From positions 32,001-96,000 of the IMG/VR virus record IMGVR_UViG_3300027917_000018: 64,000 bases of DNA. One strand, 5' to 3'. Under the pieces are notes generated by a model that made no database searches, had not been told where the DNA came from, and worked only from the letters and a program-made list of their open reading frames with translations. Shown here in pieces: positions 12,033 to 31,269 of the stretch (its first letter is position 1; every line of letters starts with the position of its first letter). The translations under genes and the position numbers were made by a program. The DNA comes from a virus. Lineage: Duplodnaviria > Caudoviricetes.

Positions 12033-12200
12033 ATGTGTGTTGGACGTTTCGATGAATGGCGCGCCATTGCTAACGGTGAGAATCGCGGCGGAGCGGTTGC
12101 AGTCGCGCAAGCTGGGCTGCCCTCCGCAAGGCGGCAAAAAGCCCCGAGCATTGATTCGTTTACGCCGAAAGCAGATTCCGACGCGCCCGACGCAACGTAG
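12033..12200 (+). CDS. Possible 55-aa ORF (or structured RNA) between terminator and sheath genes
   Basis: ATG 7 nt after TAGTTA (12020-12025); its stop lies inside the next TAGTTA; peptide not obviously protein-like. Confidence 0.25.
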   Translation: MCVGRFDEWRAIANGENRGGAVAVAQAGLPSARRQKAPSIDSFTPKADSDAPDAT

Positions 12201-12218
12201 TTAAAGCGAGAAACGAGT

Positions 12219-14429
12219 ATGGCAACGATTCGCACGAAAACATTTCCGGGCGTCTATACGCAAATCATCGACCGGAGCTATCTGCTACCGCAGACAAGCC
12301 GGTTCCGTGGCGGCCTGATTGGCGTGGCGCGTAAAGGCCCGTTTGACACGCCAACCTCAGTGCGGTCGCTCCAGGAATTCCAGCGGCTGTTTGGCCAACC
12401 TCTGGTTGGGAACTATTTCCTGGCCAATGCGGTCGCCATTCTGTCCGACCTCACGGACGGCATGAAGGTGGTCCGTGTCGGGTTCCGGTCCGACAGCCTG
12501 CCGGGTGCGACCTTCACGGCTTCGGCGCTTTCCGTCACTGGGACGGTTACGCCCTACGCCAAGGGGTCGGTGCTCGATCCGGCGCTGTGGAGCGGGGACG
12601 TTTACGTCACCGTCAAGCAGGCTGGGCTGGCGCAGACTGTCAACCAGGTTGTGACCTCGGTCGGCAGCATCGGCCCGGACAGCGCCCTGGTTTCGTTTAC
12701 GGACGCCGACGCCATCAAGGCTCTCTACACCAACGCGACGGTCGAGTACTCGATCGGCAACCCGCACGCCAACGAGGCTCAGGGCCTGCTTTACGCCTAC
12801 ACCTACGGCTCCAACAGCGGCGATCCGTGGGATGCCCCGCTTTACACGGGCTCCTACGTGGTGACCTGCTCGGGCGATAAGGGCGACTACGAGATTCAGC
12901 TGACCCACCCGAGCACCTATTCGCTTTTCGCCGTTGGTGACCTGCTCAAGATCAGCCAAACCGGCAAGAACGACACCCAGGAAGTCAGGGTCAAGCAGGC
13001 GCTCCCCGATGGGCGCGTGTTGCTGGAAACCACCGATTTGCCGGGCAAGGGCTACCAAGCCCTGGCGCTTCAGGACAGCTACACGGCTGCCTACGTTTAC
13101 CGGAAAACCGGCTCCATCTCCTACATCAACCTTGAGGCGGCTTCGGCGGGTGACTGGGCCAACAGTGGCGACATCACCGCCGGGCTCTTCGTTAAGGTGC
13201 GCCCCGGCGGCAAGGCCAACACCAAGAAGTTCGAGGTTTACGAGGACGGGGCCTTGGTCGAGACCATCGACAACCTCTACAACGGCAGCGGCACCAATTC
13301 GTGGTCGGGCCGGATCAACGGCAACAGCCAGTACATCAGCGTCGTCAGCGTGGCCACGTCCGGGACGATGAATTACCTCCCGGCCAATTACAGCTATGGC
13401 TACGAGGCCGGGGCCTATCTGATCAACTCCGGGTACAACAACTCGGGCGGCAGCTTCAGTGAAGGCTACAACGGCGAGGCCGCCACGGCGGAGGACTTCA
13501 TTGGACGCTACGACCCGACGACGGATCGGTACACCGGCATCCAGTCCTTCATCGATACGCCCGAGGCGCGGGTCGACATCATGTGCTGCCCCGGCATCAC
13601 CGACGGCGGAAGCTACGATCCGCTCGGCGGCGACACCAGCGGCCTCCACCGCCGGATGTATGAAGTCTGCAACCGGATCAATGCCCTGGCCATCATCGAC
13701 GTTCCTCCGGCGCTCAATGCTCGGCAGGCCATCGACTGGCACAATGGCGATGGCCTCTACAGCGGGCGTGGCCGGATCGACAGCTACAACATCAGCTGTT
13801 TCTGGAACTGGTTCACCATTTCCGACCCGTTCACCGGGGAGGACAAGACGGTGCCGCCCACCTTGGGCGCTCTGCGATGTTTGGCCTTCACGTTCGACCG
13901 CGACAAGCCGTGGTATGTGGCGGCGGGCGACCAGCGCGGCATCATCCCCGAGGCCAAGTACGTCGAGTTCGAGCACGTGTCCGACGACACCAAGCAGTCG
14001 ATGTACGGCAACGGGCAGTCCATCAACGGCATCTTCCTCGATCGGGGACAGATCAAGCTGTGGGGCGAGCGGACGATGCAGGTGGCCGAGAGCAAGCTCT
14101 CCGTCAACCACAACGTTATCCTCGTCAACTATGTGGTCTACAACCTGTCGGAGATTGGCCGCCGGTTCATCTTCGAGCCCAACGATCCCGAGCTGCTGGT
14201 GCGGGTCCGCCTGGCCTTCGCCCAGTTCCTCGACAACGTCAAGACGGAGCGCGGCATCGAGGAATACGTGCTGGTCATTGACGACACCAACAACTCGGCG
14301 GACACGCGGAACCGCCGCGAGGTCATTGTTGACCTGGCTATTGTCCCGACCGATTCGGTCGAGCGCATCTACATCACCGCCACGGTGCGCGAAAGCGGCG
14401 CGGTGCTTGATGAACTGAACGCTGAGTAA
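12219..14429 (+). CDS. Tail sheath protein
   Basis: N-terminal FPGVYTQIID and C-terminal WYVAAGDQRG...FIFEPND...GIEEYVLVIDDTNN...ERIYI sheath motifs. Confidence 0.95.
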   Translation: MATIRTKTFPGVYTQIIDRSYLLPQTSRFRGGLIGVARKGPFDTPTSVRSLQEFQRLFGQPLVGNYFLANAVAILSDLTDGMKVVRVGFRSDSLPGATFTASALSVTGTVTPYAKGSVLDPALWSGDVYVTVKQAGLAQTVNQVVTSVGSIGPDSALVSFTDADAIKALYTNATVEYSIGNPHANEAQGLLYAYTYGSNSGDPWDAPLYTGSYVVTCSGDKGDYEIQLTHPSTYSLFAVGDLLKISQTGKNDTQEVRVKQALPDGRVLLETTDLPGKGYQALALQDSYTAAYVYRKTGSISYINLEAASAGDWANSGDITAGLFVKVRPGGKANTKKFEVYEDGALVETIDNLYNGSGTNSWSGRINGNSQYISVVSVATSGTMNYLPANYSYGYEAGAYLINSGYNNSGGSFSEGYNGEAATAEDFIGRYDPTTDRYTGIQSFIDTPEARVDIMCCPGITDGGSYDPLGGDTSGLHRRMYEVCNRINALAIIDVPPALNARQAIDWHNGDGLYSGRGRIDSYNISCFWNWFTISDPFTGEDKTVPPTLGALRCLAFTFDRDKPWYVAAGDQRGIIPEAKYVEFEHVSDDTKQSMYGNGQSINGIFLDRGQIKLWGERTMQVAESKLSVNHNVILVNYVVYNLSEIGRRFIFEPNDPELLVRVRLAFAQFLDNVKTERGIEEYVLVIDDTNNSADTRNRREVIVDLAIVPTDSVERIYITATVRESGAVLDELNAE

Positions 14430-14450: not shown

Positions 14451-15056
14451 ATGGCAAGGCTACGTTACAAAAACACGTTCGCGTCGCAGAATTCGCGACT
14501 CGACCTCCAGCGTGTTGACCTTTTCAAGATCACCCTGGAGCTGCCCACCGCGCTCGGCCTTCCGTGGGACGAGCACGTTGAATTTGCCGTCGAGAAGTTC
14601 CCATTCCCTGACCGGAACAAGGAACTCATCGCCGTCAAGTACATGCAGCAAACCAACCAGATGCTTGGTGCCGACTCGAACAGCGGGCCGGTCGACATCC
14701 CGGTGCGGTATGCCTTCGCCCAGCGCACTGCCGAGGCGCTGGAGAAGTGGTTCTGGCTCATTGCCAACCCGCTCACGGGCGGCGTCGGTCTGACCAGCGA
14801 GGTCAAGTGTATGGGCTTCATGCGCTGGCTGATCCCCAACATGCGCAAGCAGATCGCCGACATCCGCAGCCAGGCTATCCCTGGTGAGGACACGATGCGG
14901 GACGGAGCCACCTACGTCCTGGAAGGCTGCCTGATCCGTGGCCTGAAGTTCATCGACGCGGACATGACGACCAGCAACTACGTCAACCTGCAATTCGGCC
15001 TGTCAGTTGACCGTTGGTATCCCGAAAACATTGAGGCACTCCAGCAAACCTATTGA
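14451..15056 (+). CDS. Tail tube protein (gp19-like)
   Basis: 201 aa directly after the sheath; tube-fold pattern ending VNLQFGLSVDRW. Confidence 0.75.
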   Translation: MARLRYKNTFASQNSRLDLQRVDLFKITLELPTALGLPWDEHVEFAVEKFPFPDRNKELIAVKYMQQTNQMLGADSNSGPVDIPVRYAFAQRTAEALEKWFWLIANPLTGGVGLTSEVKCMGFMRWLIPNMRKQIADIRSQAIPGEDTMRDGATYVLEGCLIRGLKFIDADMTTSNYVNLQFGLSVDRWYPENIEALQQTY

Positions 15057-18816: not shown

Positions 18817-19590
18817 ATGCCGTTCATCCGGGACACCTTGAACCAATGGGGCCGCCGTGGCGGGGAAAATCCCCAGCGAAACGACCTTTGGCAGGTCGAT
18901 CTTAGCTCCGTGGTCGTGGGCATCAATCTAGCCTTCGAGACTGAGTTTCGCATCGTGCCGAAATGGTACCCGGCATCCATTAGAATTCCTGAGCCAAAGG
19001 TCAAGGCGGAGGCCACGCGCCGGGACAGCCGGTCCTACATGATGCCGAGCTGGGACGAGCCCTTTGACCCGATCATGCTCAATTTCCTGGTCGACGACGG
19101 CGGCTATCGTACTAAGCAGAACACGGCTGTCACGCCCTACAGCGAGATTTACGCAATTCTGGATGCCTGGCGGCGCATGGTGCGCTCTGGTCGTGGCTCG
19201 GTGGGTGCGGAAAGTGAGCCGCTCCGGCTCAACGAGAACTATCAGCAGCCTTTCCTGTTTCCGATTTACCTTTGGACGGCACGGGGCGTGCGCCCGGTGA
19301 ACGCTCTGGCCGCCGCGTACAGCCGGGCTGCGGCTACGTCGCCGCTGGGCGATCCGGCCACCATGTTTCCGGGCTCGACCTCCGCCGCCATCGCCAACAA
19401 GTACGCGACGCTTTCGACCGATAAATTCAGCGCGTCCATGCAGCGTGCGATGGAGACCTCGGGCATTTACATCCTGGAAAGCTGCTGGCTAGGAGGTTTC
19501 AAGCTCGCCGAGCTGAGTTACCGGGGCAGTGATGTCCTTACCTGCGAGGCCACCATTCACACCGCCAACGTCTTGCAACAAATCCCGTGA
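18817..19590 (+). CDS. Tail tube paralog / tube initiator (gp54-like)
   Basis: PQRNDLWQVDL resembles LQRVDLFKITL of the tube protein; C-terminal YILESCW...ELSY tube-like pattern. Confidence 0.5.
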   Translation: MPFIRDTLNQWGRRGGENPQRNDLWQVDLSSVVVGINLAFETEFRIVPKWYPASIRIPEPKVKAEATRRDSRSYMMPSWDEPFDPIMLNFLVDDGGYRTKQNTAVTPYSEIYAILDAWRRMVRSGRGSVGAESEPLRLNENYQQPFLFPIYLWTARGVRPVNALAAAYSRAAATSPLGDPATMFPGSTSAAIANKYATLSTDKFSASMQRAMETSGIYILESCWLGGFKLAELSYRGSDVLTCEATIHTANVLQQIP

Positions 19591-20711
19591 GCGACCAAGC
19601 AACAGTCCTGCGCCAGATGAGGCCGCCCTACGCGGGCAACGCCAAAATCGTTTACGGCTTTCGCCGCTCCGTTCCTAAAAACTTCGGCTATACGCTGGAG
19701 ATTCCGGTGGGTGGCAACGTCATCGCCCCGGCTGACGGCTCCGTCGAGCTTATTCAGCCGAGTTCGGTCGGATGGCGCTATACCAGTCCTGCGTTAAAGG
19801 GAGGCGCGATCCTGATTCGCATTAACCACGGCTACGGGGTCAAAACCTACATTCACGGCGTTGCCAATCCCAGCGTCGGCTACGGCCAGGTGACGCGGGG
19901 ACAGGTGCTCGGAACCTCGGCTTATGGCGAGGTCTTTTTTGCCGTCGAAGTCTTTGGTTCCATGACCAACCCGTCGCGGGTCAACAGTTTCTTCGCGCCG
20001 CGCAGCGGCAATCTTTACGCGGGTCAGTCCGCGACCATTCGGCAGGCTCCGAACGTGGGCACCTGGTTTGTCTCGGCGCTATCCCAAGTCTGGTACAACG
20101 GCCTTCGTTATTTTACCACGCCCCAACCGTTTTTCGTAAACGTGGATTTCAACGGCGGAGGTTCCAAAGCAGGGCTAGCGGCGGTGGGCTACGCGGAAAC
20201 CGATTACTGGAACGTGCTGGTGCCCTTGGCGGGGCCTTTTGGCTACGCCTCCTACACCACGGACTGCGGCCCGACAGCCTATACCTGGACGGCGGAGCCC
20301 AGCGTCCCGCTGCTGGATTACCGAGGCAAGCCCTCGAAGGTTAGCCTGCGGCGCGTTATCGAGGACAATTTCTATGGCTCCAGCGCTGAATTCGACCCGA
20401 TGCTTAGCACCTACTACGGTGGCTGGAGCGGCAGCACGCCTCGCCAGCAGTGGTACGACATTCGGGGCTTAGCGCCGGGGTCGTACGACATCTACGTTTA
20501 CGCCAATCAGAAAAGTGGCTCGTACACTTCGATCATTTCGATGGCAGTGGCTGGCAGCCTTCCCACGACAAAAGTGCCGCTCAGCACGACTCAGGCTGCT
20601 TGGATTGAGGATTACAATTACGTCAAGTTCACCAAGACCCTGGGTGTCGGCGACTACTTGACCTTTGAGGTCTTAGGCTACATAGGCGGCCTGCAAATCA
20701 CGCGTTCTTAA
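19587..20711 (+). CDS. Degenerate M23-fold domain fused to a beta-sandwich carbohydrate-binding-like domain
   Basis: IPVGGNVIAPADGSV...INHGYGVKTY...RGQVLG M23 fold lacking HxxxD/HxH; C-terminal NVDF...DYWN...GLAPGSYDIYVY...NYVKF...GLQI. Confidence 0.55.
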   Translation: MSDQATVLRQMRPPYAGNAKIVYGFRRSVPKNFGYTLEIPVGGNVIAPADGSVELIQPSSVGWRYTSPALKGGAILIRINHGYGVKTYIHGVANPSVGYGQVTRGQVLGTSAYGEVFFAVEVFGSMTNPSRVNSFFAPRSGNLYAGQSATIRQAPNVGTWFVSALSQVWYNGLRYFTTPQPFFVNVDFNGGGSKAGLAAVGYAETDYWNVLVPLAGPFGYASYTTDCGPTAYTWTAEPSVPLLDYRGKPSKVSLRRVIEDNFYGSSAEFDPMLSTYYGGWSGSTPRQQWYDIRGLAPGSYDIYVYANQKSGSYTSIISMAVAGSLPTTKVPLSTTQAAWIEDYNYVKFTKTLGVGDYLTFEVLGYIGGLQITRS

Positions 20712-20715
20712 CAGC

Positions 20716-21249
20716 GTGCGCGTGCCTTGGCCTCAATATCCACTGGTTTCTGGCTTGTTGGCGATCACCCGCCCGGATCGATTGGCTTTCGGTCGGGCCA
20801 CGCTAATGAGCTTCATGGCTCAAGACTGGCCGTGCCTGGAAGCAGTGGTATTCAACACGACCGATAGGAAGCTCAACCCGCCACGGGGCATCAGGGAAAT
20901 ACGGCTTAGAGCGATGCCACAGGCTCAGATGCTTGGCCTCTGTCGCCACAACGCCGACGGCCAGTATTGCGTGGTTCTGGAAGACGATACTTGGTACGGC
21001 CAGGGGCTCGTCACGACGCTGATGGAGCACGCGGAGCAGGACGCCTTGGTGCTCCTGCGGCGCAAGGTTCGTTATTCGGTCCAGGAGCAGCGTGGGTACT
21101 TGGTCGAGGACGACAGCATTGTGTGCCCGCTGTTTCCAAGGGTCCACCCAGCACCCTATGGTCCAAAGCTGTCGGAGATGGCCGCTCAGTTTCAGTACGT
21201 TCGGCACGCCGATGGCCCGGTTGACCTGATGGTGAAGTTCACGCGATGA
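20716..21249 (+). CDS. Glycosyltransferase family 2-like (GT-A) protein
   Basis: SFMAQDWPCLEAVVFN, GQYCVVLEDDTWY DxD-like motif; GTTCTT 6 nt upstream of the GTG. Confidence 0.6.
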   Translation: MRVPWPQYPLVSGLLAITRPDRLAFGRATLMSFMAQDWPCLEAVVFNTTDRKLNPPRGIREIRLRAMPQAQMLGLCRHNADGQYCVVLEDDTWYGQGLVTTLMEHAEQDALVLLRRKVRYSVQEQRGYLVEDDSIVCPLFPRVHPAPYGPKLSEMAAQFQYVRHADGPVDLMVKFTR

Positions 21250-22979
21250 AAGCTCTGGAAAAGGCAGTGCGCGAGTGGTCTTCGATCAAAGGCTACGCTC
21301 CTGAGCGCTTCGACCCCTTCAGCGTGGATACCGGCATCAAGGTTTACGATCGGAATAGGCCGCGCAGGTTTTACCACAGCGGCGACATCGGCGACATCAT
21401 CTATGCTTTGCCCACCATGCGGGCCTTGGGCGGAGGAGAGCTGGTCCTGGGGCCGCAAATGCGCCAGGATGTGCGGGCCACGGTTCGGGCGGCAATGACC
21501 GAGAAAATGGCCGCGATGCTCCGTCCGCTGCTGCAATTGCAGAGCTACGTCAAGTGGGTGGCCTTCGCGCCCGCAATGCCGGAAGTGGACGTTGACCTGA
21601 ACAAGTTCCGCGAGGAGCTGGTAGTCGACAGCGCCGCCTTCCGGCGCACAGGCCGTCTGCTGAATCTCGCCGAGGCACACTTGAAGCGCTTCCGGCTGGA
21701 TTTGCGCGAATGCCAAAAACCGTGGCTGGTTGTCGACCGGGCGGTGGCCATTAAAGACCGGCCCGTAATTCTGCACCGCTCGCCCCGGTGGCGGAATTCG
21801 GATTTTCCTTGGCAGGACGTGCTCGAAAAATACGGATCGCAGGCACTCTTTGTCGGACTGCGAAGCGAGTACGACGACTTCGTGTCCGACTGGGGCGCTG
21901 ACCTGCCGTTCTACCAAATCAGCGACTTTCTGGACATGGCCAGGCTGATCGCCGGGTCCGAGCTGTTCATCGGTAACCAGAGTTTTCCATACGCCCTAGC
22001 TGAGGGCATGAAGAAGACTTCGCTGCTCGAAGTATGGCCGGATGGTCCGAACTGTCTGTTTCAGAGGCCCAACGCCAACTACGGCCTGGGCAAAAACGTT
22101 TACATTCCAAACCTCAAGTTCAGTATGGTCGAAGAAAAGCTGACTGAATGCCCGATGTGCGGCACTGCCGACGCTGTCCCCGTCAGGCGGAGCGCGGACA
22201 TCGTTTCCTGCAACAGCTGCAATCTCGTTTACCTGCGAACTCGCATGAGCGCCGACAGCATGGAGGAGCACTATCAGCGGTACGCTGACGGCACATCTCA
22301 CATGCGGCTGCCTGAGCGGATCGAGGAAGTCCGCACGTCCGGCTTGCGTCGGGAGTACTTCATGCAAGAGCTTCTGGAGCACGTCAAATCCGGCGCGTTA
22401 CTGGACATCGGGAGCGGGTGGGGTGCCTGGCTGTCCAACGCCAGGGCCAAGGGCTTTTCGGTGCGCGGTGTCGAAATATGCCGTAAAATGGCCGATTTCG
22501 CCTGTTCGGTCCTCGGCGTTCCCACTATGACTCGGCAGCTTGAAGACTGCGGCTTCGCCAACGCCGACTTTGACGTGGTCACGGCGATTCACTCGCTGGA
22601 ACACCTGCCCTACCCGAAAACGGCGTGGGAGACTGTGCGCCGCATTCTTCGTCCGGGCGGTTTCTTCTGCGGCATCGTTCCCAACTTCGAGTCATTGTGC
22701 TCCAGAGCACAGAAGGAGGGATGGATGTGGCTGGACCCGAACATGCACTACGTCCACTATACCGAAAACACCCTGCGGCAGTGCTTGGAACGCTTCGGGT
22801 TCCAGCCAATTCGCATTTACACCGCGACCGGTGACTTTGATCCGGGCCAGGTCGCCAAAGTGGTCTCAGCCAGCTCACAAGTACCGATCGGCGAAGAGGA
22901 GATGAAAAGCCGCATTGAGGCAGTCTGCGCCAGCGGCGAGGGAGAGGAATTACGATGGTTTGCACAAAAGAAGAGCTGA
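21246..22979 (+). CDS. GT9-like glycosyltransferase fused to zinc-ribbon class I SAM methyltransferase
   Basis: HSGDIGDIIYALP...LFIGNQSFPYALAEG GT-B half; CPMC...CNSC then LLDIGSGWG, HSLEHL, LRPGG methyltransferase half. Confidence 0.8.
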   Translation: MKALEKAVREWSSIKGYAPERFDPFSVDTGIKVYDRNRPRRFYHSGDIGDIIYALPTMRALGGGELVLGPQMRQDVRATVRAAMTEKMAAMLRPLLQLQSYVKWVAFAPAMPEVDVDLNKFREELVVDSAAFRRTGRLLNLAEAHLKRFRLDLRECQKPWLVVDRAVAIKDRPVILHRSPRWRNSDFPWQDVLEKYGSQALFVGLRSEYDDFVSDWGADLPFYQISDFLDMARLIAGSELFIGNQSFPYALAEGMKKTSLLEVWPDGPNCLFQRPNANYGLGKNVYIPNLKFSMVEEKLTECPMCGTADAVPVRRSADIVSCNSCNLVYLRTRMSADSMEEHYQRYADGTSHMRLPERIEEVRTSGLRREYFMQELLEHVKSGALLDIGSGWGAWLSNARAKGFSVRGVEICRKMADFACSVLGVPTMTRQLEDCGFANADFDVVTAIHSLEHLPYPKTAWETVRRILRPGGFFCGIVPNFESLCSRAQKEGWMWLDPNMHYVHYTENTLRQCLERFGFQPIRIYTATGDFDPGQVAKVVSASSQVPIGEEEMKSRIEAVCASGEGEELRWFAQKKS

Positions 22980-23857
22980 AAAAGATCGCTGTGGCCATTC
23001 CGTCCTATCGGAGGCCCGAATTCCTGAAGCGATGTATCGCCGCTGTAGCCGCCATGCCGGAGGTCCAGGCAGGCGTCCCGGTCTTCCTGCTGGCTGACGG
23101 CGGCTTGGAATCGCAACGAGAGCGCTGTATGGCCGCTTTTCTGGCGGAGTACGTGCCCGACAGGACCGTGATCTGCCGCACGGATCGCCACCGGCAGCCT
23201 CGGAATATGATCCTTGGTAAGCAAGAGCTGTTTAGCAGGGGCTTTGAGTGGGTGGCGATCATCGAAGAAGATGTCGTTGTTCACCAGCATTGGCTGGCGC
23301 TCATGCTTTCGCTACATCGGTGGGCGGACGAGAACTTTGACAACTGCGGCATGGTTGGGAGCAGCATTGTGGACGACGCCAACGACCCAGCCTGGGTTTC
23401 GGATGCTGGTCAGTCCATTTGCAATCATCTGATTTCAAAGCGCGCTTGGACCCGGATATGGCCGATGCTCTGCGATTACCTGGATCGCGTGCCTGAAAGC
23501 GAGGAACGCGACGACCCGCGTGTGATTCAGGTCCAGCGTTGGTTCAATGAGCAGGCCGCCAGAATTCCCGCAGGCGGGCCGCGCAGCATTCCTCACCACT
23601 GGCGGTCGGAGCCCAAAGACTTCTACTTAGCGGAATCGGTGCCCGCCAGCCAGGATGCTGCGCACGATCTGGCCCTTCGTGTAAACGGCATGGCTAGGCT
23701 TGTTTGCGACGCCAATCGGGCCGTGCATATCGGCAGCTATGGCGAGCACACAACGCAGAACGAGAAGTACGATCAAACCTTAAAAGGCTGGCCTGAAGAT
23801 GCCGACCGAACCTCATTTGTCTTGCGGAGGAAAAGGCCCGCTCCCGCCGTGGCGTGA
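22955..23857 (+). CDS. GT-A fold glycosyltransferase (GT2/GT13-like)
   Basis: VAIPSYRRPEFL, LLADGG, IIEEDVVV, HIG motifs. Confidence 0.7.
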   Translation: MVCTKEELKKIAVAIPSYRRPEFLKRCIAAVAAMPEVQAGVPVFLLADGGLESQRERCMAAFLAEYVPDRTVICRTDRHRQPRNMILGKQELFSRGFEWVAIIEEDVVVHQHWLALMLSLHRWADENFDNCGMVGSSIVDDANDPAWVSDAGQSICNHLISKRAWTRIWPMLCDYLDRVPESEERDDPRVIQVQRWFNEQAARIPAGGPRSIPHHWRSEPKDFYLAESVPASQDAAHDLALRVNGMARLVCDANRAVHIGSYGEHTTQNEKYDQTLKGWPEDADRTSFVLRRKRPAPAVA

Positions 23858-23876
23858 CAGCCTGTGGTTCAAAGCC

Positions 23877-24440
23877 ATGATCCAGGTTTTGACGGACGGG
23901 CCGCGCCATTCGCTGGTAAACCCGAGCCGCCTGTGGATTCTGGCCGAAGCATGCTCTTTGGTTCGGGGCCTTGTCGGCTGTGCCGTTGAATTTGGTGTTT
24001 ACCGGGGAGGCTCGGCCTGGTTCCTACGAAATGTGCTGCCATCCGACGTGGTTCTCCATCTGTACGATAGTTTTCAGGGCCTGCCAAAGCCATCGCCCCA
24101 CGACGGGTTTCACGAGGGCGATTTCGGGGACACGTCCCTCGATCAGATCAACGACTTGGCGCAAAAGCCCAACGTGGTAATTCATACTGGCGTGTGGAGC
24201 GCCGACGTGGAGGTCCCTGAATCGGTTTGTTTTGCCCATCTGGACTGCGACATTTACCCAAGCGCCAAGGATGCGCTCGCCGCCCTTTGGCCGAAGATGC
24301 TGCCCGGCGGACTGATTGTCTGCGACGACTACGGTTTTCCGAATTGCCAGGGCGTTTACAAAGCTGTAAACGAATTTATCGCCAGCTACGGTGTCCGCCC
24401 CATGCGGCTTGAAACAGGCCAATGCCTGCTGTTCCGATGA
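23877..24440 (+). CDS. TylF/MycF-family sugar O-methyltransferase, copy 1
   Basis: EFGVYRGGS, LYDSFQGLP, FAHLDCDIY, LPGGLIVCDDY motifs; start likely 23877. Confidence 0.85.
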   Translation: MIQVLTDGPRHSLVNPSRLWILAEACSLVRGLVGCAVEFGVYRGGSAWFLRNVLPSDVVLHLYDSFQGLPKPSPHDGFHEGDFGDTSLDQINDLAQKPNVVIHTGVWSADVEVPESVCFAHLDCDIYPSAKDALAALWPKMLPGGLIVCDDYGFPNCQGVYKAVNEFIASYGVRPMRLETGQCLLFR

Positions 24441-25366
24441 AAAGGCAAAAGATCGATGATCGGTTTCCAAGCAAAGTGATGTACAGGACGCATCCGTGCG
24501 TTTTTGAGCGCTCAATCGCGCCCGAGCCTGGAACCGCGTGGGCGGTGCGGGGACCCAGGCGGCTGATGACTTACCGCGTAGAGCTTGAGCCCCTGAACCA
24601 GCGCAGCTCGACGTGCCTGTGTCCTCTCGACGATAACTGGACGCCCATGTACCATTTGGAGCACCACCTGGATTTCGGTCTTCCGCGCAATGAACAGCGC
24701 ATGGCCATCGAGGAGGACTGCCGGTTGTTCAATTTTTGCGGCAGGGTTTGGTTCAACATCACCAACCGCAACGATACGTTCCTGGGCGAGCTGGATTGGC
24801 AGGCCCACGACCCGAAGGTGGTCGGCTGCGGCATTCTCGCGTTTCCGTTTGAGGTCGGCAGCACGGAAAAGAACTGGATGTTCTTTGAACAGGGTGGCCT
24901 GCTCTACGGGGTCAGATGGGTTCACGCCCACGTCGTTCATCGGATTTACCCCGACTTCCAGAAAGGTCACGCGGTTAGCGAGCCTATCGTCCACGAATAC
25001 CGGCTGGACTGGCCGCATGGCCGTCCCCACGGCGGCACGTCGCCAGTTGCGATCGGCGACGAGTACCTCAGCCTTTTTCAGTCCAGCAAGCTCGCTGCGG
25101 TAAATGGCCGCAAAGACTACTACGTTGGCGTTTACGCTTTTGAGGCCAAGCCACCTTTTAGGGTTACGCGTGTGCCAAAAGAGCCTTTGATTTCTCCGCT
25201 GACCTGGCCCGAACATTCTGTCGGGTTCAATGGGCACAACACTTTCTTTCCGTTGGGCCTTGCACGAGAGAACGACACCTGGAGGGTCAGTCTTGGGGAT
25301 GACCGCGCCATGTGGCTGCTCGAATACAGCACCGATGAACTCCTCGACGCAACCAAACCTGTTTGA
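24437..25366 (+). CDS. Five-bladed beta-propeller glyco-enzyme (GH130/GT91/GT108-like)
   Basis: EDCRLF, EKNWMFF, HGGT, FPLG motifs; ATGA overlap with the upstream stop. Confidence 0.6.
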   Translation: MKRQKIDDRFPSKVMYRTHPCVFERSIAPEPGTAWAVRGPRRLMTYRVELEPLNQRSSTCLCPLDDNWTPMYHLEHHLDFGLPRNEQRMAIEEDCRLFNFCGRVWFNITNRNDTFLGELDWQAHDPKVVGCGILAFPFEVGSTEKNWMFFEQGGLLYGVRWVHAHVVHRIYPDFQKGHAVSEPIVHEYRLDWPHGRPHGGTSPVAIGDEYLSLFQSSKLAAVNGRKDYYVGVYAFEAKPPFRVTRVPKEPLISPLTWPEHSVGFNGHNTFFPLGLARENDTWRVSLGDDRAMWLLEYSTDELLDATKPV

Positions 25367-25370
25367 GCTG

Positions 25371-25958
25371 ATGGAGCAGACGATGGGAATGCTCTGCTTT
25401 CCCAGGGCCACCCATCTGGCGCATTACCTTCTTCAGACGGCCACGGTTCCAGGAGCGGTGGCTGAATTTGGCTGCCACCAGGGCCGTACGGCGGCCTTTA
25501 TGACGGCTCTGACCAAGAAGCACGTTTACGTTTACGATAGCTTTGCCGGGCTGCCGCCACCGTCGGAGCATGACAGGCCATCGGAGGTCTTCCACGAGGG
25601 CGCGATGGCTATAAGCCCGCAAGAGCTGGTAGACCTATTCAAGAGACTCGGGCTGCGCACACCGATCATTGAGCCCGGCTTCTTCAAGGACCTCCAGCCC
25701 CACCAGTTGCCCAAGGAAATCGCTTTTGCCCACTTGGACGGCGACTTCTACGAAAGCATTGCGGGGCCGCTGTACGTGGTCTGGCCGAGGCTGTCGCCCG
25801 GAGGCTACATCGTGGTCGACGATTGGGACTGGGACCAGCTACCGGGCGTCACGGACGCGGTCAAGGCGTGGTCGAAAGATATAGGGATCAAGCCGGAGGT
25901 TCAGTACGGCACGGACGGGGCAGGATGCCACCAGGCGGTGCTGCACAAACCTAGTTAG
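25371..25958 (+). CDS. TylF/MycF-family sugar O-methyltransferase, copy 2
   Basis: EFGCHQGRT, VYDSFAGLP, FAHLDGDFY, LSPGGYIVVDDW; start likely MEQTMG at 25371. Confidence 0.85.
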   Translation: MEQTMGMLCFPRATHLAHYLLQTATVPGAVAEFGCHQGRTAAFMTALTKKHVYVYDSFAGLPPPSEHDRPSEVFHEGAMAISPQELVDLFKRLGLRTPIIEPGFFKDLQPHQLPKEIAFAHLDGDFYESIAGPLYVVWPRLSPGGYIVVDDWDWDQLPGVTDAVKAWSKDIGIKPEVQYGTDGAGCHQAVLHKPS

Positions 25959-26145: not shown

Positions 26146-26159
26146 CGTTCTTAACTACG
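26146..26159. promoter_or_regulatory. 14-bp bidirectional element CGTTCTTAACTACG between head-to-head start codons
   Basis: Contains GTTCTT (plus, 7 nt before the primase ATG) overlapping GTAGTTAA (minus, 6 nt before the 26145 ATG). Confidence 0.65.
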
Positions 26160-27221
26160 ATGACTGGCGATCAGCTACGCGAAACGGTCGAGCAGCTCTT
26201 TCAGCCGGTGCCGCACCGCAGCACCGCGACGGAGCTGGCTTTCGTCTGCCCGCAGCCCGGATGCACGGATTCTTCCGGCCACCGATCCGTTAACCTGAAG
26301 ACCGGCCAGACCAACTGCTGGATTTGCGGGGTCGGCGGCGATTTTGTGCGCTGGGCACAGCGGCTTGGCTACGCGGTCACGGAGGAACACCGGGTTACCA
26401 AGCCGATGGAGGAGGCTGAGTTCGACCGCATCAGCCGGACTCCGGTCAATGACTTGCCGGTGGTCACCAATATCAAACTGCCGAAGGGTTTCAGGCTTTG
26501 CCGGGACTACCCGAACAGCGTTTACACGGAATTCATCGCCGAAATGGCCGAGCGCAAGGGACTGAAAATCGATGACCTCATGTCCGTGAGTGTGGGCTTT
26601 ACGAAGACCGATCCGTTATGGGAGCCTTACGCGATCTTCCCCAGTTTCGAGTATGACAAGGTCGTTTACTATCAAGGCCGGACCTATGTCGACGAGCCCG
26701 ACCAGAAAACCAAGAAGTTCCCCAGCCGCCGGGAAGTTCCCTACAGCGCCAAGTACTGGGTCTACGGCATTGACGAACTGCGCGCCGAGCGGCCCGAGAC
26801 CGTGCTGGTCATGGAATCCATTTTGAACGTGCTGACCATGCGGCGGTTCATGCGCCGTCACAAAATCAAAGGCGTCGGTACAGCCTGTGTTTTCAGCCAC
26901 AGCATCAGCGAGCCGCAGGCCACCAAACTCAGGCAGCTGGAATTCCTGAAGGAGGTTGTGCTTCTATTCGACCACGACGCGACTCGTCGCGGCTGGCAGA
27001 AATCGCCCAGGCTCGGCAACAAGTTCAACCTGACGATCGCGGACATGCCGCCTGGCCCCGGCGGCGAGAAGAATGACCCGAACGACGATCCAGAGGGTGC
27101 GTGGCGGGCTTTTGAAAAGCGCGAGCACGTGAATACTGTTTTGGCTGCTGGTGCCGACATGTTCGATTTCGACCGGGAACCGCTGGACGCTGATTCGTTT
27201 ACGCGCCGACGCCGTTCTTAG
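26160..27221 (+). CDS. DNA primase (zinc-binding domain + TOPRIM)
   Basis: CPQPGC...H...NCWICG zinc domain, YYQGR, VMES and FDHD TOPRIM acidic motifs. Confidence 0.85.
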   Translation: MTGDQLRETVEQLFQPVPHRSTATELAFVCPQPGCTDSSGHRSVNLKTGQTNCWICGVGGDFVRWAQRLGYAVTEEHRVTKPMEEAEFDRISRTPVNDLPVVTNIKLPKGFRLCRDYPNSVYTEFIAEMAERKGLKIDDLMSVSVGFTKTDPLWEPYAIFPSFEYDKVVYYQGRTYVDEPDQKTKKFPSRREVPYSAKYWVYGIDELRAERPETVLVMESILNVLTMRRFMRRHKIKGVGTACVFSHSISEPQATKLRQLEFLKEVVLLFDHDATRRGWQKSPRLGNKFNLTIADMPPGPGGEKNDPNDDPEGAWRAFEKREHVNTVLAAGADMFDFDREPLDADSFTRRRRS

Positions 27222-27225
27222 GGGC

Positions 27226-27849
27226 ATGAAGCAAATCAAAGCGCTGTTTGGCAACCGTCTTGCCGTTCAACTGGCCGAAGAGGAATACGAGGGGCTGATT
27301 GTGACCGCTCCGACCGCGATGCGGATGCACGTGCTGGCCAAAGTCATTGCCAAGGGGCCGGAGGTCAAAGGCATTGAGGTCGGCGACATCGTGTTTTACC
27401 AGAAGGTGATTCACCCGTTCGGGAACGCGCAAACTGACCCGTTCGGTGACGCCAAGCGCTACGACCTTAATGGAACGCCCACTTTCATCGAGATGGCCGG
27501 TGACATGATCGCCAAACTCACGGCGCAAAAGGTCAAATTGGAGCATTTTCAGGCCATCGGGGATTGGTGCCTCTGCCGTAAGAAAGTGATCGAACCGAGC
27601 AAGCTGATCGTTGTGCCCGACACCGCCGAGGCTACGAACCAGGACATCATGGTCGAGTTCCACGTGGAACAAGTTGGTGAGTCGGTAAACATGGACTTGC
27701 CGCATGGGGCGGAGCTGATTCTGGACCGGGGACGCGCCAACCCGCTACAAATCGAGCGCGAGGACTTCGTCTACGTCCACAAGAACTTCATCCTGGGCGT
27801 TCTTGGGTATCCGACGGACACAACAGAGCCTGAAGCGACCGGTAGTTAG
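27226..27849 (+). CDS. Tandem two-domain GroES/Cpn10 co-chaperonin
   Basis: Two GroES-like repeats: LFGNRLAV...GLIV...KVIAKGPEV..IEVGDIVF...DMIAKL and AIGDWCLC...LIVVPDTA...VEQVG...FILGVL; start 27226 is 6 nt after GTTCTT. Confidence 0.7.
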   Translation: MKQIKALFGNRLAVQLAEEEYEGLIVTAPTAMRMHVLAKVIAKGPEVKGIEVGDIVFYQKVIHPFGNAQTDPFGDAKRYDLNGTPTFIEMAGDMIAKLTAQKVKLEHFQAIGDWCLCRKKVIEPSKLIVVPDTAEATNQDIMVEFHVEQVGESVNMDLPHGAELILDRGRANPLQIEREDFVYVHKNFILGVLGYPTDTTEPEATGS

Positions 27850-27852
27850 GAC

Positions 27853-30800
27853 GTGGTAACGCTCACGCTTAACGGCGCTCCAGCACCAACAAGCTACGCT
27901 CTAGGGTCCGTTTACACGCTTCTGGCGCTGGTTGACGCGCAGGAGCCGCTTTCGGTTGAATGGTCGGTTGCCCGCCAGGGCGAGCCGCCCATCGCCGGTA
28001 CCGGTCCCATTCGTTTTGAGCCGGTCGCCGCCGAGACTCACTATCTTCACGTCGCTGCCGTTGGCCAGGACGGTGTCCTCCAGCAAACCGTTTTCCAGCT
28101 TCAGGTCGTCGCTGCCGGGGCTTCTGCCATGTCGCCCACGATCCAGTGGTCGACGACCAGCCCCGCCATCCGCCAGACAGTTGTGGCAACCATTTCGGCG
28201 GCCAATCCCAGCACTGGGTCACGGCGTCCGCCGCGCAACATCGCCTGGACAGTCTACCTGAATGGCACACCCATCCTGGGCGGTGAGGGAGCCCAAACCG
28301 GCTTTCCGATCCTCTATCCTGGCGTTTACCGGCTCGTGGCAACGCTTGTGGACGAGGGAGGCAATTCGGCCACGGCGGACAGCTCGATCGTGGTTCCGGG
28401 TGGTTTTGAGCTTCAGACCGCCGTTGTGCCAAAACAGCCCACTGGGACTCTGTACTACTTGGGCAGCGTTTATTCTGCCACGGTCGAGGGCTACGCACAG
28501 CTGGCCACCGAGCTGCCTTACCTTGTCATTAGCGCCAACAGCGCGGTCCACCTGCTGCCGGGCACGACGCATGTCATCGCCGAAGTTGAGGAAGGCGGCG
28601 TTGTTCAAGATGAAGTCGTGCTCAGGTCCAGGCTGGGAAACTGGTCCCTGGTTGGCGGCCCAGGCGGCTTGACCACTGAGTCCCTGTTTTACGATTACGT
28701 CCCGGCAGTGCCGCTGCCCGCCCCGCACGACCGCCTGTTCCGCTACACGCTCGACCAATGGAAAGTGGGCGGCACTTCCGTTTCCGACTATCGGTTTCGG
28801 GTCCGGTTCAAGTGCTACCGCGAGGGCCAGAAGCTTTACGAGTACAGCGCCTGCCCGTACGCCAACTACCCAGGCGGTGAGGCGCTTCGCGAAAAGCGGA
28901 TGGTGGCGTTGATCACGAACGTCGATTTCAGGCTGGATGCCGAAAGCCCGGACAACCGCCTCGGTTCGACGGACACGATCACGTACACGACACCCAATCA
29001 GATCACGCTGGAAGGCAACTTTACGCCGGACGGTGCGCCCTACGGTGTCGCCTACCGCGAGGAAGACCACGGGTTCACGGCGCAGAACATCATCGCCAAC
29101 TACGAGGCCGCCGGGCACCCGGACATCAAAACCCACGCTGTTTACGGAATACCGGGCGTCCGGCCCGCCCTGCTGGACTTCACACAGCCTGGCCTGCCAA
29201 GGATCATTCAGTACGCCAAGCGCTTGCACGGTAAGCTGGTGGTCTACATGGCGGGCGGAGGCGTGTCCTACGACACGGTCATTTGGGCTCGAATTTATAC
29301 CGGCAAGTCGCCGGGTTACCAGGTGGTCCGTCTGCGCTGCGCCGACGTGCTCTACAATGGCTCCTTGGAGCGCTACGTGAAAGTTGCCGAAGCGGACATT
29401 GACCTCAGCGACTTCGAGTTCGGCAAAGTCGGCTTGGCCATTGATTTGACGCTGGATGAGGCCGAGGCGCACACGACGCCCTACTATCGCACCGAGGATA
29501 CCGACGATGCTTGGGAGACGGAGGAGGGCGGCTTTTTCTGGCAAGTGGAAGAGTCGGGCACCGACGTAAATTACCAGCCGCCTGAAATTGCGCCGGAAAG
29601 GGTCTACGCGACCTCGGGCAGCCAGGCCGTTCACTACGAGGGAGCCTGCTACTATAGGCCGGTTCCCGTGGCGGTCTTCGACGGCACCCACGCCGTCGCG
29701 GGCACAGTCATCGAGAGCTGTGCCGATCCCGTTTGCGGCGACCGTGGCGTTTACTGCTACACCGACGGAACGAATTTTGCCCAAGTCATTCAGCCGCTGG
29801 ATCACCCCGCGCCCTACTTGGCGTTTGCCAGCGACCAGGCTCATTGTTGGTACGACCCGTACTTCGTTGCCATTGCCGGGGACGGGACCGTGGCGATCAA
29901 CGAGCCCTACCTGCCGTATTCGGGGACAAGCGGCTGCGGCATAGGTTACGCTTACGCCAGCTGCGGATCACTCGCCGCCATCGCCGTCATTTACCCGGCG
30001 GCGGCCTCACCACACAGCTTTGTGGCCTACGGCAGCAACTGCTACGCGCTGAGTGGCAGCGTCGCGGACCTGCGCCCTTACGAGACTGTGGCTTTGGTGG
30101 CGGACGTGACTGCCGTAGCGAGCTGCGATGACGTAGCCTGTACGGGCAGCGATGCCTCGGGTGACTCGGCCTGGTACCTCGACCAGCACGGCCAGCGGGT
30201 CCAGGTCTACTTCCCGCATTTGAATCAGGGAATTCCCAGCTACGGGGCGGCACAGGAGAGGATGAGCCCCGGCTATGGGAGGACGCCGCCGGGCCGCCTC
30301 TACTACAATTCCTGGGCGCAGCCGATCTGGCCCATAATGACGGCGCAGGAGGCCGCCACGGTGGACTTCGTAATGACCCCGCTGGGCTGGACCCGGAAGC
30401 TTTACGTGCGCCGTGGCACTACCGTTACCGAGTACTCTTATGGCCTTGGCACGGTGCGCAAACGCATCGATTTGCAAGCCGGGGACCACGTCTTTCTTCA
30501 GTTCGGCTCCAGGTCGACCAATCTGGAAGGCTACGTGGACTACGCCAAGCGCGTAACGCTGCCCGCGTATTACGACAGCGCAGTCTTGGACACCGGTACG
30601 GCCTCCTCAATCAGGGCTCTTGGCTTCTGCGGCTTCTCCCAGGTCGAGGATTACGTTTTCTTCGGCACGCTGCCGGTAGAAACCGCCATGTCCCTGCCCA
30701 ATCCCGACAGTATCGTCACTGTCACTGGAAGCGGAGCGGAGGAGCAGCTTCTCGTCAGAACTTTTGCCTACGGCGATCGGTACTACCCGCTGTCCTGGCC

Positions 30801-31269
30801 AGCTTACGGCGGCGAGGTCCTCAACATGCCCGTGACCTTCAAATTTTACGCCGGGCGGAACATCGCGGGGCGGCATGGTGAAATGGATGTCTGGCTCGAC
30901 CTGGATCAGAGCCTTCCCGGATTCCTCAAAGTCTCGCGCTATCACGTTTTGACCGCCGATGCGGGCCAATATCGCGTCACGGCGCAAATAGGCGACATCA
31001 ACCGGCGCGGTTTGCGAGTTTCCTCCAGCACCGAGGCGAATGAGCTGCTCTTGCCGCGTGTCTACGCAACGACAGAAGGGCAAACGATCGTGGTCGTTGG
31101 CGGTGGCACCGAGATTTACCACGATGGAAATGTTTACGCCGTAGTTGGAACTGACACAGGCATCTCGACCCAAGTCTACACAGCTCAGAGCGTATTTAGT
31201 GGTGGTGCCTGGACCACTGCGGATGGTTCGGCGTGGCTGACATCAGGAACGTTGCCTTGGCTCTCATGA
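27853..31269 (+). CDS. Large virion structural protein with N-terminal PKD/Ig-like domains
   Basis: 1138 aa, Y/G/T/A-rich beta composition, PGVYRLVATLVDEGG PKD-like motif, Cys-rich middle; TAGTTA 4 nt upstream. Confidence 0.6.
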   Translation: MVTLTLNGAPAPTSYALGSVYTLLALVDAQEPLSVEWSVARQGEPPIAGTGPIRFEPVAAETHYLHVAAVGQDGVLQQTVFQLQVVAAGASAMSPTIQWSTTSPAIRQTVVATISAANPSTGSRRPPRNIAWTVYLNGTPILGGEGAQTGFPILYPGVYRLVATLVDEGGNSATADSSIVVPGGFELQTAVVPKQPTGTLYYLGSVYSATVEGYAQLATELPYLVISANSAVHLLPGTTHVIAEVEEGGVVQDEVVLRSRLGNWSLVGGPGGLTTESLFYDYVPAVPLPAPHDRLFRYTLDQWKVGGTSVSDYRFRVRFKCYREGQKLYEYSACPYANYPGGEALREKRMVALITNVDFRLDAESPDNRLGSTDTITYTTPNQITLEGNFTPDGAPYGVAYREEDHGFTAQNIIANYEAAGHPDIKTHAVYGIPGVRPALLDFTQPGLPRIIQYAKRLHGKLVVYMAGGGVSYDTVIWARIYTGKSPGYQVVRLRCADVLYNGSLERYVKVAEADIDLSDFEFGKVGLAIDLTLDEAEAHTTPYYRTEDTDDAWETEEGGFFWQVEESGTDVNYQPPEIAPERVYATSGSQAVHYEGACYYRPVPVAVFDGTHAVAGTVIESCADPVCGDRGVYCYTDGTNFAQVIQPLDHPAPYLAFASDQAHCWYDPYFVAIAGDGTVAINEPYLPYSGTSGCGIGYAYASCGSLAAIAVIYPAAASPHSFVAYGSNCYALSGSVADLRPYETVALVADVTAVASCDDVACTGSDASGDSAWYLDQHGQRVQVYFPHLNQGIPSYGAAQERMSPGYGRTPPGRLYYNSWAQPIWPIMTAQEAATVDFVMTPLGWTRKLYVRRGTTVTEYSYGLGTVRKRIDLQAGDHVFLQFGSRSTNLEGYVDYAKRVTLPAYYDSAVLDTGTASSIRALGFCGFSQVEDYVFFGTLPVETAMSLPNPDSIVTVTGSGAEEQLLVRTFAYGDRYYPLSWPAYGGEVLNMPVTFKFYAGRNIAGRHGEMDVWLDLDQSLPGFLKVSRYHVLTADAGQYRVTAQIGDINRRGLRVSSSTEANELLLPRVYATTEGQTIVVVGGGTEIYHDGNVYAVVGTDTGISTQVYTAQSVFSGGAWTTADGSAWLTSGTLPWLS

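Follow-up and report, generated by a model that had tools for sequence, protein, structure and literature searches.

We analysed a stretch of 64,000 nucleotides (nt; hereafter the window) that covers bases 32001-96000 of a 202,975-base IMG/VR virus record (IMGVR_UViG_3300027917_000018; CheckV completeness 89%) from a T4-like jumbo myophage with a GC content of about 60%. At positions 20716-25958 the window holds an island of six open reading frames (ORFs), all on the plus strand, that encode four sugar-transferring enzymes and three methyltransferases, i.e. seven catalytic domains in six genes (g1 to g6). Our results point, with a probability of roughly 50%, to a pathway that builds a short, methylated and probably mannose-containing oligosaccharide in the cytoplasm, most likely on a protein of the virion. 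Neighbouring ORFs overlap by 4 to 137 nt, in agreement with the tightly coupled six-gene island that had been proposed earlier from the sequence alone (below, the original prediction). The domain assignments of that prediction were all borne out as well, that of GT9 at the level of fold. That the genes form one coupled pathway for a methylated oligosaccharide is supported independently by natural fusions (GT9, TylF and a GH130-like propeller in a single chain) and by recurring gene neighbourhoods.

In the pathway that we propose, g1 (a GT-A glycosyltransferase, GT), the GT9-fold domain of g2 and g3 (a GNT-I-like GT-A enzyme) would transfer the first sugars from nucleotide-sugar donors. The propeller protein g5 would add a beta-linked mannose, most likely in beta-1,2 linkage, by the substrate-assisted inverting mechanism of GH130 and GT108, with GDP-mannose or mannose-1-phosphate as donor. 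Sugar hydroxyls would be methylated by g4 and g6 (Mg-dependent TylF enzymes) together with the methyltransferase half of g2, using methyl groups from S-adenosylmethionine (SAM). Membrane segments were found in none of the six proteins, and all six are predicted to be soluble and cytoplasmic. The absence of nucleotide-sugar genes, noted originally for the window, extends to the entire 203-kb record (89% complete): it likewise holds no gene of the Epimerase or NTP_transferase families, which implies that the sugar donors would have to be made by the host.

Methyltransferases and glycosyltransferases of the island

Both TylF assignments of the original prediction hold well above the cut-off of the Pfam family (PF05711, 23 bits). 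The product of g4 (213 amino acids (aa), 23799-24440, plus strand, alternative start 23877) scores 66.5 bits (E 2.9e-18), and that of g6 (25230-25958, plus strand) scores 92.8 bits (2.8e-26). The start of g6 is ambiguous and is probably to be sought at 25299, 25335 or 25371 rather than at 25230. Among PDB sequences, g4 matches 5i10 and 4cdz (2e-16) as well as MycF and NovP, and keeps the metal motifs LDCDIY and DDY; g6 matches 4cdz (3e-21), MycF (1.6e-15), NovP and CalS11, and keeps LDGDFYES and DDW. The LDxD...DD blocks of the two proteins align with those of MycF, NovP and 4cdz. Family scores and metal-binding Asp motifs are thus shared with TylF, MycF, NovP and CalS11, whereas the substrates of those enzymes are macrolide or aminocoumarin sugars or TDP-rhamnose, and g4 and g6 are shorter (about 195-240 aa). 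Catalytic motifs, the possible loss of which had been raised with the original prediction, are intact in the island's enzymes.

The first gene (g1, 20716-21249, plus strand) encodes a short glycosyltransferase of 177 aa with a DXD-like EDD motif. Its match to Pfam GT2 (PF00535) is sub-threshold (E 0.023, 15 bits against a cut-off of 23.3), and it is placed in GT-A by comparison with GT2 clusters in the Atlas (features 0.95, structure TM 0.81-0.89), consistent with the GT2-like enzyme that had been proposed. Orthologues of g1 adjoin a GT-B gene in three related loci (L086, L087 and L110). The second GT-A enzyme, g3 (22955-23857, plus strand, 300 aa, EED motif), is GNT-I/MGAT2-like: it falls just below the threshold of Glyco_tranf_2_3 (PF13641; 1.1e-5, 26 bits against 27) and resembles GNT-I-like clusters in the Atlas (structure TM 0.83). 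Searches of g1 and g3 against PDB sequences returned nothing.

Three domains are fused in g2 (21246-22979, plus strand, 577 aa): a GT9-fold GT-B domain (aa ~30-295, nt 21333-22130), a Lar-type zinc ribbon (aa ~298-341, 7e-4) and a class I SAM methyltransferase (aa 375-522, nt 22368-22811), the last of which matches Methyltransf_23 at 2e-21 (77 bits against a cut-off of 27). This bears out the GT9-like enzyme fused to a methyltransferase that had been read from the sequence, with the GT9 part recognized in structure. An AF2 model of the N-terminal domain (27 homologues, m37d4ba0696c7; pLDDT 92.4) has GT9 structures as its best Foldseek matches. It superimposes on 3tov, 1psw, 2h1f and 4rap with VIA Z scores of 14.7-16.0 (about 225 aligned residues, root-mean-square deviation 3.5 Å), against at most 9.4 for non-GT9 structures of the glycosyltransferase-type GT-B fold; chains of the NDH-PSI complex score 12.4-14.1. 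No match of g2 to Pfam GT9 (PF01075) was found, and that family is touched by only 3 of 27 GT9-like family domains, all sub-threshold (best E 2.7e-4). A profile of the domain (A5) found no GT9 enzyme and nothing else relevant among PDB sequences, so that a fold search was needed. Judged from the model, the domain is GT9-like at the level of fold only.

The GT9 fold is that of the lipopolysaccharide (LPS) heptosyltransferases WaaC and WaaF, and TibC is a protein heptosyltransferase; all three are, with 3tov, the GT9 structures matched at these Z scores. With these enzymes the g2 domain shares the compact GT-B fold, and its sequence has an N-terminal G-D-x-x-x-x-x-P loop motif; it differs from them in having no similarity to solved GT9 enzymes at the level of hidden Markov models, in its length of about 250 aa and in being often tandemly duplicated or fused. 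We found 169 homologous clusters of the domain, and in at least 35 of them it is fused to the same methyltransferase as in g2; fusions to GT2, GT1/4, FkbM or MT24 domains occur as well. Tandem duplicates are seen in the metagenomic relatives P0022-P0025 and P0056, some of which add a GT2 domain (about 920 aa in total).

The GH130/GT108-like propeller family

The fifth gene (g5, 24422-25366, plus strand, alternative start 24437) encodes a five-bladed beta-propeller. On its own sequence, g5 gave no match to PF04041 (Glyco_hydro_130) at E<0.1 and only non-significant GH130 matches among PDB sequences (E 0.3-0.5), so that a family profile was needed. A profile built from 15 homologues (A1) reached 7fip at 2.3e-18 and also Lin0857, Teth514_1788 and Uhgb_MS (GH130 beta-1,2-mannoside phosphorylases), and several members of the family carry PF04041. 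The AF2 model of g5 (pLDDT 75, pTM 0.79) points the same way: its 34 best Foldseek matches in the PDB are all GH130 or GT108 (TMq 0.54-0.69). The GT108 enzyme MTP2 (6q4z) stands at rank 33 of these fold matches (TM 0.54) and was not listed by the profile search. By profile and fold, g5 is a relative of the GH130/GT108 superfamily and not a member of the curated family. The motifs EEDCRLF, EKNW and HGGT, from which a resemblance to the GH130/GT91/GT108 superfamily had been read originally, are all present.

To relate g5 to solved enzymes, residues were mapped to Uhgb_MS via HMMER alignments, a mapping that is approximate at this low identity. The catalytic Asp99 of g5 lies within E98-D99-C100-R101, which aligns with the EDCR or EDPR of Uhgb_MS, 7fip and 9fj8, and all 158 of the 158 family members compared have D99 and R101. 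E98-D99 corresponds to E136-D137 of Uhgb_MS and K150 to K184, where the E136/K184 pair marks beta-1,2 specificity and D137 is the catalytic acid (PMC12814180). Across the 158 members the (near-)invariant residues are R52, E98, D99, R101, E149, K150, N151, W152, Y165, H170, R203, G204, G205, H220, Y233, F240, P245, F246 and D294. Besides the five-bladed propeller, the EDxR with its catalytic Asp and the E/K pair, the family has the GGxPP, Y...G and YGxxD blocks in common with GH130 and GT108. Its hallmark, which sets it apart as a separate family, is a block that reads YAFEAKPPF and is nearly invariant. A further difference concerns Arg202 of Uhgb_MS, a phosphate-binding arginine that is present in all GH130 phosphorylases and missing from strict GT108 transferases (PMC12814180). 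Arg is not among the commonest residues listed for this column across the family (mainly S, T, Q, L and M); in the five phage orthologues the residue is W or S, that of g5 being W166.

Some residues of g5 are unusual for the family. C100, R165, W166 and R201 are common to g5 and its 46%-identical orthologue in L086, with loss of the family R203, a pattern that looks like conserved remodelling of the donor pocket. We also considered that g5 might be a decayed pseudo-enzyme; this was rejected on the ground that these four residues are kept in an orthologue of 46% identity.

By profile, the family comprises 1,723 clusters (at 50% identity; E<=1e-30) among 1.84 billion representative proteins. A tblastn search with g5 and the more typical propeller of a small-phage group (L050) gave no match in 50,697 isolate phage records, and no cultured phage with a propeller of this family was thus found; the island DNA had no match in the same records either. 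The known relatives are the GH130 mannoside phosphorylases Teth514_1788/1789, Lin0857 and Uhgb_MS (PMC12814180) and the GT108 enzymes, i.e. the Leishmania MTPs (PMC10913872). GH130-like propellers lacking a sequence annotation have been noted in giant viruses, in a report that does not describe the g5 family (bioRxiv 10.64898/2026.08.04.742344). Members of the g5 family occur in biosynthetic clusters and fusions, not in settings of mannan catabolism. The family as a whole is large, undescribed and mostly metagenomic, and given its fusions and its methyltransferase neighbours it looks biosynthetic rather than catabolic.

The fusions include one chain (P0287) that combines GT9 (PF01075, 2.8e-10, 40 bits), TylF (3.5e-19) and a GH130-like propeller. 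In others the propeller is joined to Mannosyl_trans3 (P0207), Methyltransf_24 (P0249) or GT1 (P0271), and three proteins (P0065, P0074 and P0078) link a GT9-like domain of the g2 type to the g5 family. The propeller is encoded at 79 IMG/VR loci, and a methyltransferase of the TylF/MT24 type lies within 3 kb of it at 62 of these, representing 14 of 18 groups (60% identity). The commonest small-phage group (L050) has the order terminase, 209-aa gene, 749-aa gene, MT24, GT25, MT25, GT25 and propeller, with a tail fibre gene close to the cassette; the 749-aa gene is taken as the portal, an assignment made without a family match. Homologues of g1, g2 and g3 were not found in the 79 loci (phmmer), which indicates that the island's enzyme set is not a conserved cassette outside close relatives. 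In bacteria, the homologue P0016 lies among GT4, FkbM methyltransferase, sulfotransferase and GT2 genes. A bacterial propeller of the family (L083:1-10932, GCA_030432295.1) is surrounded by AMP-binding/PP-binding, GT4, FkbM, three sulfotransferase-like, GT2 and TauE exporter genes, a locus that may make a sulfated, methylated glycolipid or glycan.

An accessory slot shared with a degenerate LytM gene

Upstream of the island lie the genes for the tail sheath (12219-14429), probably the tube (14451-15056), a 257-aa protein and an M23-like protein of 374 aa (M23L, 19587-20711, plus strand), and on the minus strand a 5'-3' exonuclease gene, a hub-like gene and a spike gene with a Phage_base_V domain. 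Downstream follow a primase-like gene, a Cpn10-domain gene and a 1138-aa gene. The original description of the island as embedded among virion genes therefore stands for its upstream side (spike, 257-aa and M23-like genes) and fails for its downstream side, where the primase-like gene lies.

Synteny across related jumbo phages, the comparison suggested with the original prediction, was examined at 30 loci, 29 of which were collected via the primase gene (alignment of two primases) and one of which is L084; a search for related loci with the single M23L protein found none. About 20 of the 30 loci have nothing inserted between the 257-aa gene and the primase gene. Only five variants carry an insertion in this slot, each of which opens with an M23-like gene and continues with a different set of enzymes. 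The island has thus been inserted, along with the M23-like gene, as an accessory between the primase gene and a gene on the baseplate side. In L086 the insertion consists of g1, g2, g3, a 161-aa gene, g5 and g6, and in L110 of g3, g2 and an inverted g1 plus a 349-aa gene. L084 and L111 have a propeller, a GT-B enzyme, a TylF and a GT-A enzyme. L087 has a g1-like gene, a gene for a 697-aa GT4 protein whose tail is GT9-like, and a propeller gene; its TylF genes are replaced by those for a radical SAM/SPASM enzyme and an FkbM methyltransferase (L087:7453-8875), which suggests that sugars are tailored there by another chemistry.

M23L is present in all five island-bearing variants and missing from the roughly 20 island-less relatives. 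It combines an N-terminal LytM/M23 domain with an orphan C-terminal domain. Pfam M23 is matched by the orthologues in 5 of 5 cases, and a profile (A4) reaches 2hsi in the PDB at 2e-6, with EnvC, DipM and SpoIIQ also among the closest proteins. Aligned with 2hsi, M23L shows N-x-G-Y-T as its first motif, and its HxH block is missing or exchanged (EVFF). Judged from these residues, the domain is a degenerate LytM that, like those of EnvC, DipM and SpoIIQ, has lost its zinc ligands (HxxxD and HxH) and is predicted to be catalytically dead. The C-terminal domain (about 240 aa) has no Pfam match and occurs in only 5 clusters among 5.8 billion proteins, with the conserved blocks DFNGxGxK, DYWNV and NYVKF. 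Together, the island and the dead-LytM gene form an accessory, rapidly reshuffled module of one jumbo-myophage lineage. Two further genes are constant features of the region: those for the Cpn10-domain protein (window 27151-27849, 232 aa, with the GroES-like domain confined to the C-terminal third) and for the 1138-aa protein (27853-31269, no family match, TAGTTA ahead of the gene) adjoin the primase gene in all relatives.

The acceptor and alternative explanations

The original prediction had left the acceptor open between the virion, the phage DNA and the host envelope. In our analysis DNA is disfavoured, and the virion would be the acceptor at odds just short of even, with analogy and gene position as what favours it: the position of the small-phage cassettes, two published precedents (PMC4351075, PMC9614988) and the resemblance of the g2 fold to TibC. 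As in mycobacteriophages and chloroviruses, the acceptor would most likely be a virion protein. M23L, because of its strict co-inheritance with the island, is one candidate for this role, either as the acceptor itself or as a partner.

Virion glycans have reportedly been shown in mycobacteriophages (by Freeman et al., in 2023). In Corndog, gp35 to gp38 comprise an O-methyltransferase, two glycosyltransferases and an N-acetylglucosamine-transferase, located between portal and protease (PMC4351075). If the 749-aa gene of the L050 group is indeed the portal, the small-phage cassette takes up a matching position (PMC4351075). Like the Corndog genes, our island is a compact block next to structural genes in which soluble glycosyltransferases are combined with O-methylation, the donors being supplied by the host. 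It differs in having seven catalytic domains (including the GH130-like propeller and the fusion of GT9 with a methyltransferase), and in being accessory, placed between a baseplate-side gene and the primase gene and tied to the dead-LytM gene. Furthermore, in contrast to the mycobacteriophages, the host is not an actinobacterium, and the phage (60% GC) is uncultured. In the chlorovirus PBCV-1, A064R (a fusion of two GT domains and a methyltransferase) and A061L (a 209-aa methyltransferase) act on the capsid glycan (PMC9614988). By description this pair resembles our case, with a GT-methyltransferase fusion and a second small methyltransferase that, in the cytoplasm, cap the glycan with a doubly O-methylated sugar. 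PBCV-1 differs in being a eukaryotic virus with rhamnose chemistry, other GT folds and an N-linked capsid glycan.

Short motifs ahead of the genes bear on the timing of expression. CGTTCTTAA is found on the plus strand at 20703-20711, 4 nt ahead of the g1 start and overlapping the stop codon of M23L. It recurs at 26146-26154, 5 nt ahead of the primase start at 26160, and also precedes the primase gene of the sister locus L084; GTTCTTAA has only 8 occurrences in the 203-kb genome, both strands counted. TAGTTA(A/G), on the other hand, stands 4-15 nt ahead of the sheath gene, the 1138-aa gene, the baseplate wedge gene and other structural genes (e.g. at 12198-12204 and 27843-27848). It is possible that CGTTCTTAA acts as a promoter or start-proximal signal of a non-late class, and the two motif classes may mark two classes of expression.

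Several observations weigh against a methylated glycan on the virion. The motif ahead of g1 is the one it has in common with the primase and exonuclease genes and not the structural TAGTTA. If the motifs are promoters, the island would be expressed with the replication genes and not with the late class, which would fit a modification of host or DNA at least as well as one of the virion. GT9, as well as the GT25 of the small-phage cassettes, are classical families of LPS-core synthesis. On their own sequences g1, the N-terminal domain of g2, g3 and g5 all remain below Pfam thresholds, the phage is uncultured and the island is known from sequence alone. As for g5, the residues suggest a transferase as a weak lean only, given that in GT108 a transferase cannot be told from a phosphorylase by its active-site residues alone (PMC10913872). 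Moreover, g5 departs from its family at four near-invariant positions (P100C, Y165R, R203H and H220Q), and H220Q, which is unique to this phage, could impair the enzyme.

A plausible though unlikely alternative is that the island remodels a glycoconjugate of the host envelope (the core of LPS or lipooligosaccharide, a lipid-linked precursor at the inner membrane face, or the capsule), resulting in receptor masking against superinfection or in an otherwise altered cell surface, with the dead-LytM protein tying the module to the wall. Since LytM domains are peptidoglycan binders and their degenerate forms act as regulators of wall enzymes, the nearness of M23L to EnvC, DipM and SpoIIQ can be read in this sense, as can the WaaC/WaaF-type fold of g2, the GT25 'LPS biosynthesis' enzymes of the small-phage cassettes, the CGTTCTTAA motif held in common with replication rather than late genes, and the surface-glycan-like cluster around the bacterial homologue P0016. 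Against this, a flippase, a polymerase, a priming phosphoglycosyl transferase and membrane segments are all missing from the island, and in the small phages the cassette has the terminase gene as its neighbour and a tail fibre gene close by. Seroconversion is moreover typical of temperate phages, whereas this phage looks virulent and T4-like.

We think it improbable that the pathway makes a small molecule, either soluble or bound to lipid (for example a glycolipid or a polymethylated oligosaccharide of mannose), or that g5 is a trimming phosphorylase or hydrolase. It is true that TylF enzymes such as MycF, NovP and CalS11 classically methylate sugars of natural products, that the radical SAM/SPASM and FkbM enzymes of L087 are typical of natural-product tailoring and that the nearest solved relatives of g5 are beta-1,2-mannoside phosphorylases. 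The island, however, has no genes that would form an aglycone or a lipid, the g5 family appears to lack the phosphate Arg of the GH130 phosphorylases, and fusions to GT9 and a mannosyltransferase domain point to synthesis. Finally, the enzymes might place a methylated sugar chain on the phage DNA as a protection against restriction, in the manner of the glucosylated hydroxymethylcytosine (hmC) of T4 or the arabinosyl-hmC of the RB69 type. T-even phages do glycosylate their own DNA, the island adjoins the primase gene and has the same motif (CGTTCTTAA) upstream, and every island enzyme is predicted to be cytoplasmic. Nonetheless, we consider this very improbable: a thymidylate-synthase-type (ThyA-type) hydroxymethylase was not found in the 203-kb record (89% complete), no known family of DNA glycosyltransferases was matched, and the propeller cassettes of small phages sit by the terminase gene, with a tail fibre gene in the vicinity. 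In addition, we know of no multi-enzyme O-methylated glycans on DNA.

To our knowledge, only a few mycobacteriophages and giant viruses have been shown to glycosylate their particles with enzymes of their own. Phage cassettes of glycosyltransferases and O-methyltransferases are already a known kind, and to these the locus contributes one of seven domains from an environmental jumbo phage. What is new is the propeller family in its recurrent and apparently biosynthetic association with phage enzymes of the GT9-like and TylF types, along with a hypervariable slot tied to a dead-LytM gene and the scale of the investment, which includes a second cluster at about 186-193.5 kb. The locus thereby points to a large, mostly metagenomic enzyme family, apparently an offshoot of the GH130 mannoside phosphorylases that has turned to biosynthesis. 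If its members are indeed beta-mannosyltransferases dependent on a nucleotide sugar or a sugar phosphate, they would constitute a new family of glycosyltransferases and be of use as catalysts in making beta-mannosides. The natural cassette variants of the hypervariable slot could serve to ask what phage glycans are for, be it interaction with receptors or protection from defence or grazing. A bolder proposal, on which we would not bet, is that the YAFEAKPPF propellers are a third branch beside GH130 and GT108: biosynthetic inverting beta-mannosyltransferases that would act with GT9-like and TylF enzymes in phages and bacteria to make O-methylated mannose glycans. Under this proposal the glycan would be carried or read by the dead-LytM protein of the tail or baseplate, and reshuffling of the enzymes would give each phage a distinct sugar coat on its virion.

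The second glycan and methylation cluster of the same phage lies outside the window, on the minus strand (G000:C1:185969-193552; L115:2969-10552). Its genes encode a Methyltransf_24 enzyme, a GT2, a third TylF (1e-36), a protein of no assigned function, a 318-aa Methyltransf_24 enzyme, a further protein of this sort, a radical SAM enzyme, a GT-A and another unassigned protein, in total two MT24 methyltransferases, one TylF, two GT-A enzymes and one radical SAM enzyme. A further ORF with a GT2 domain is located at G000:C1:3816-4193.

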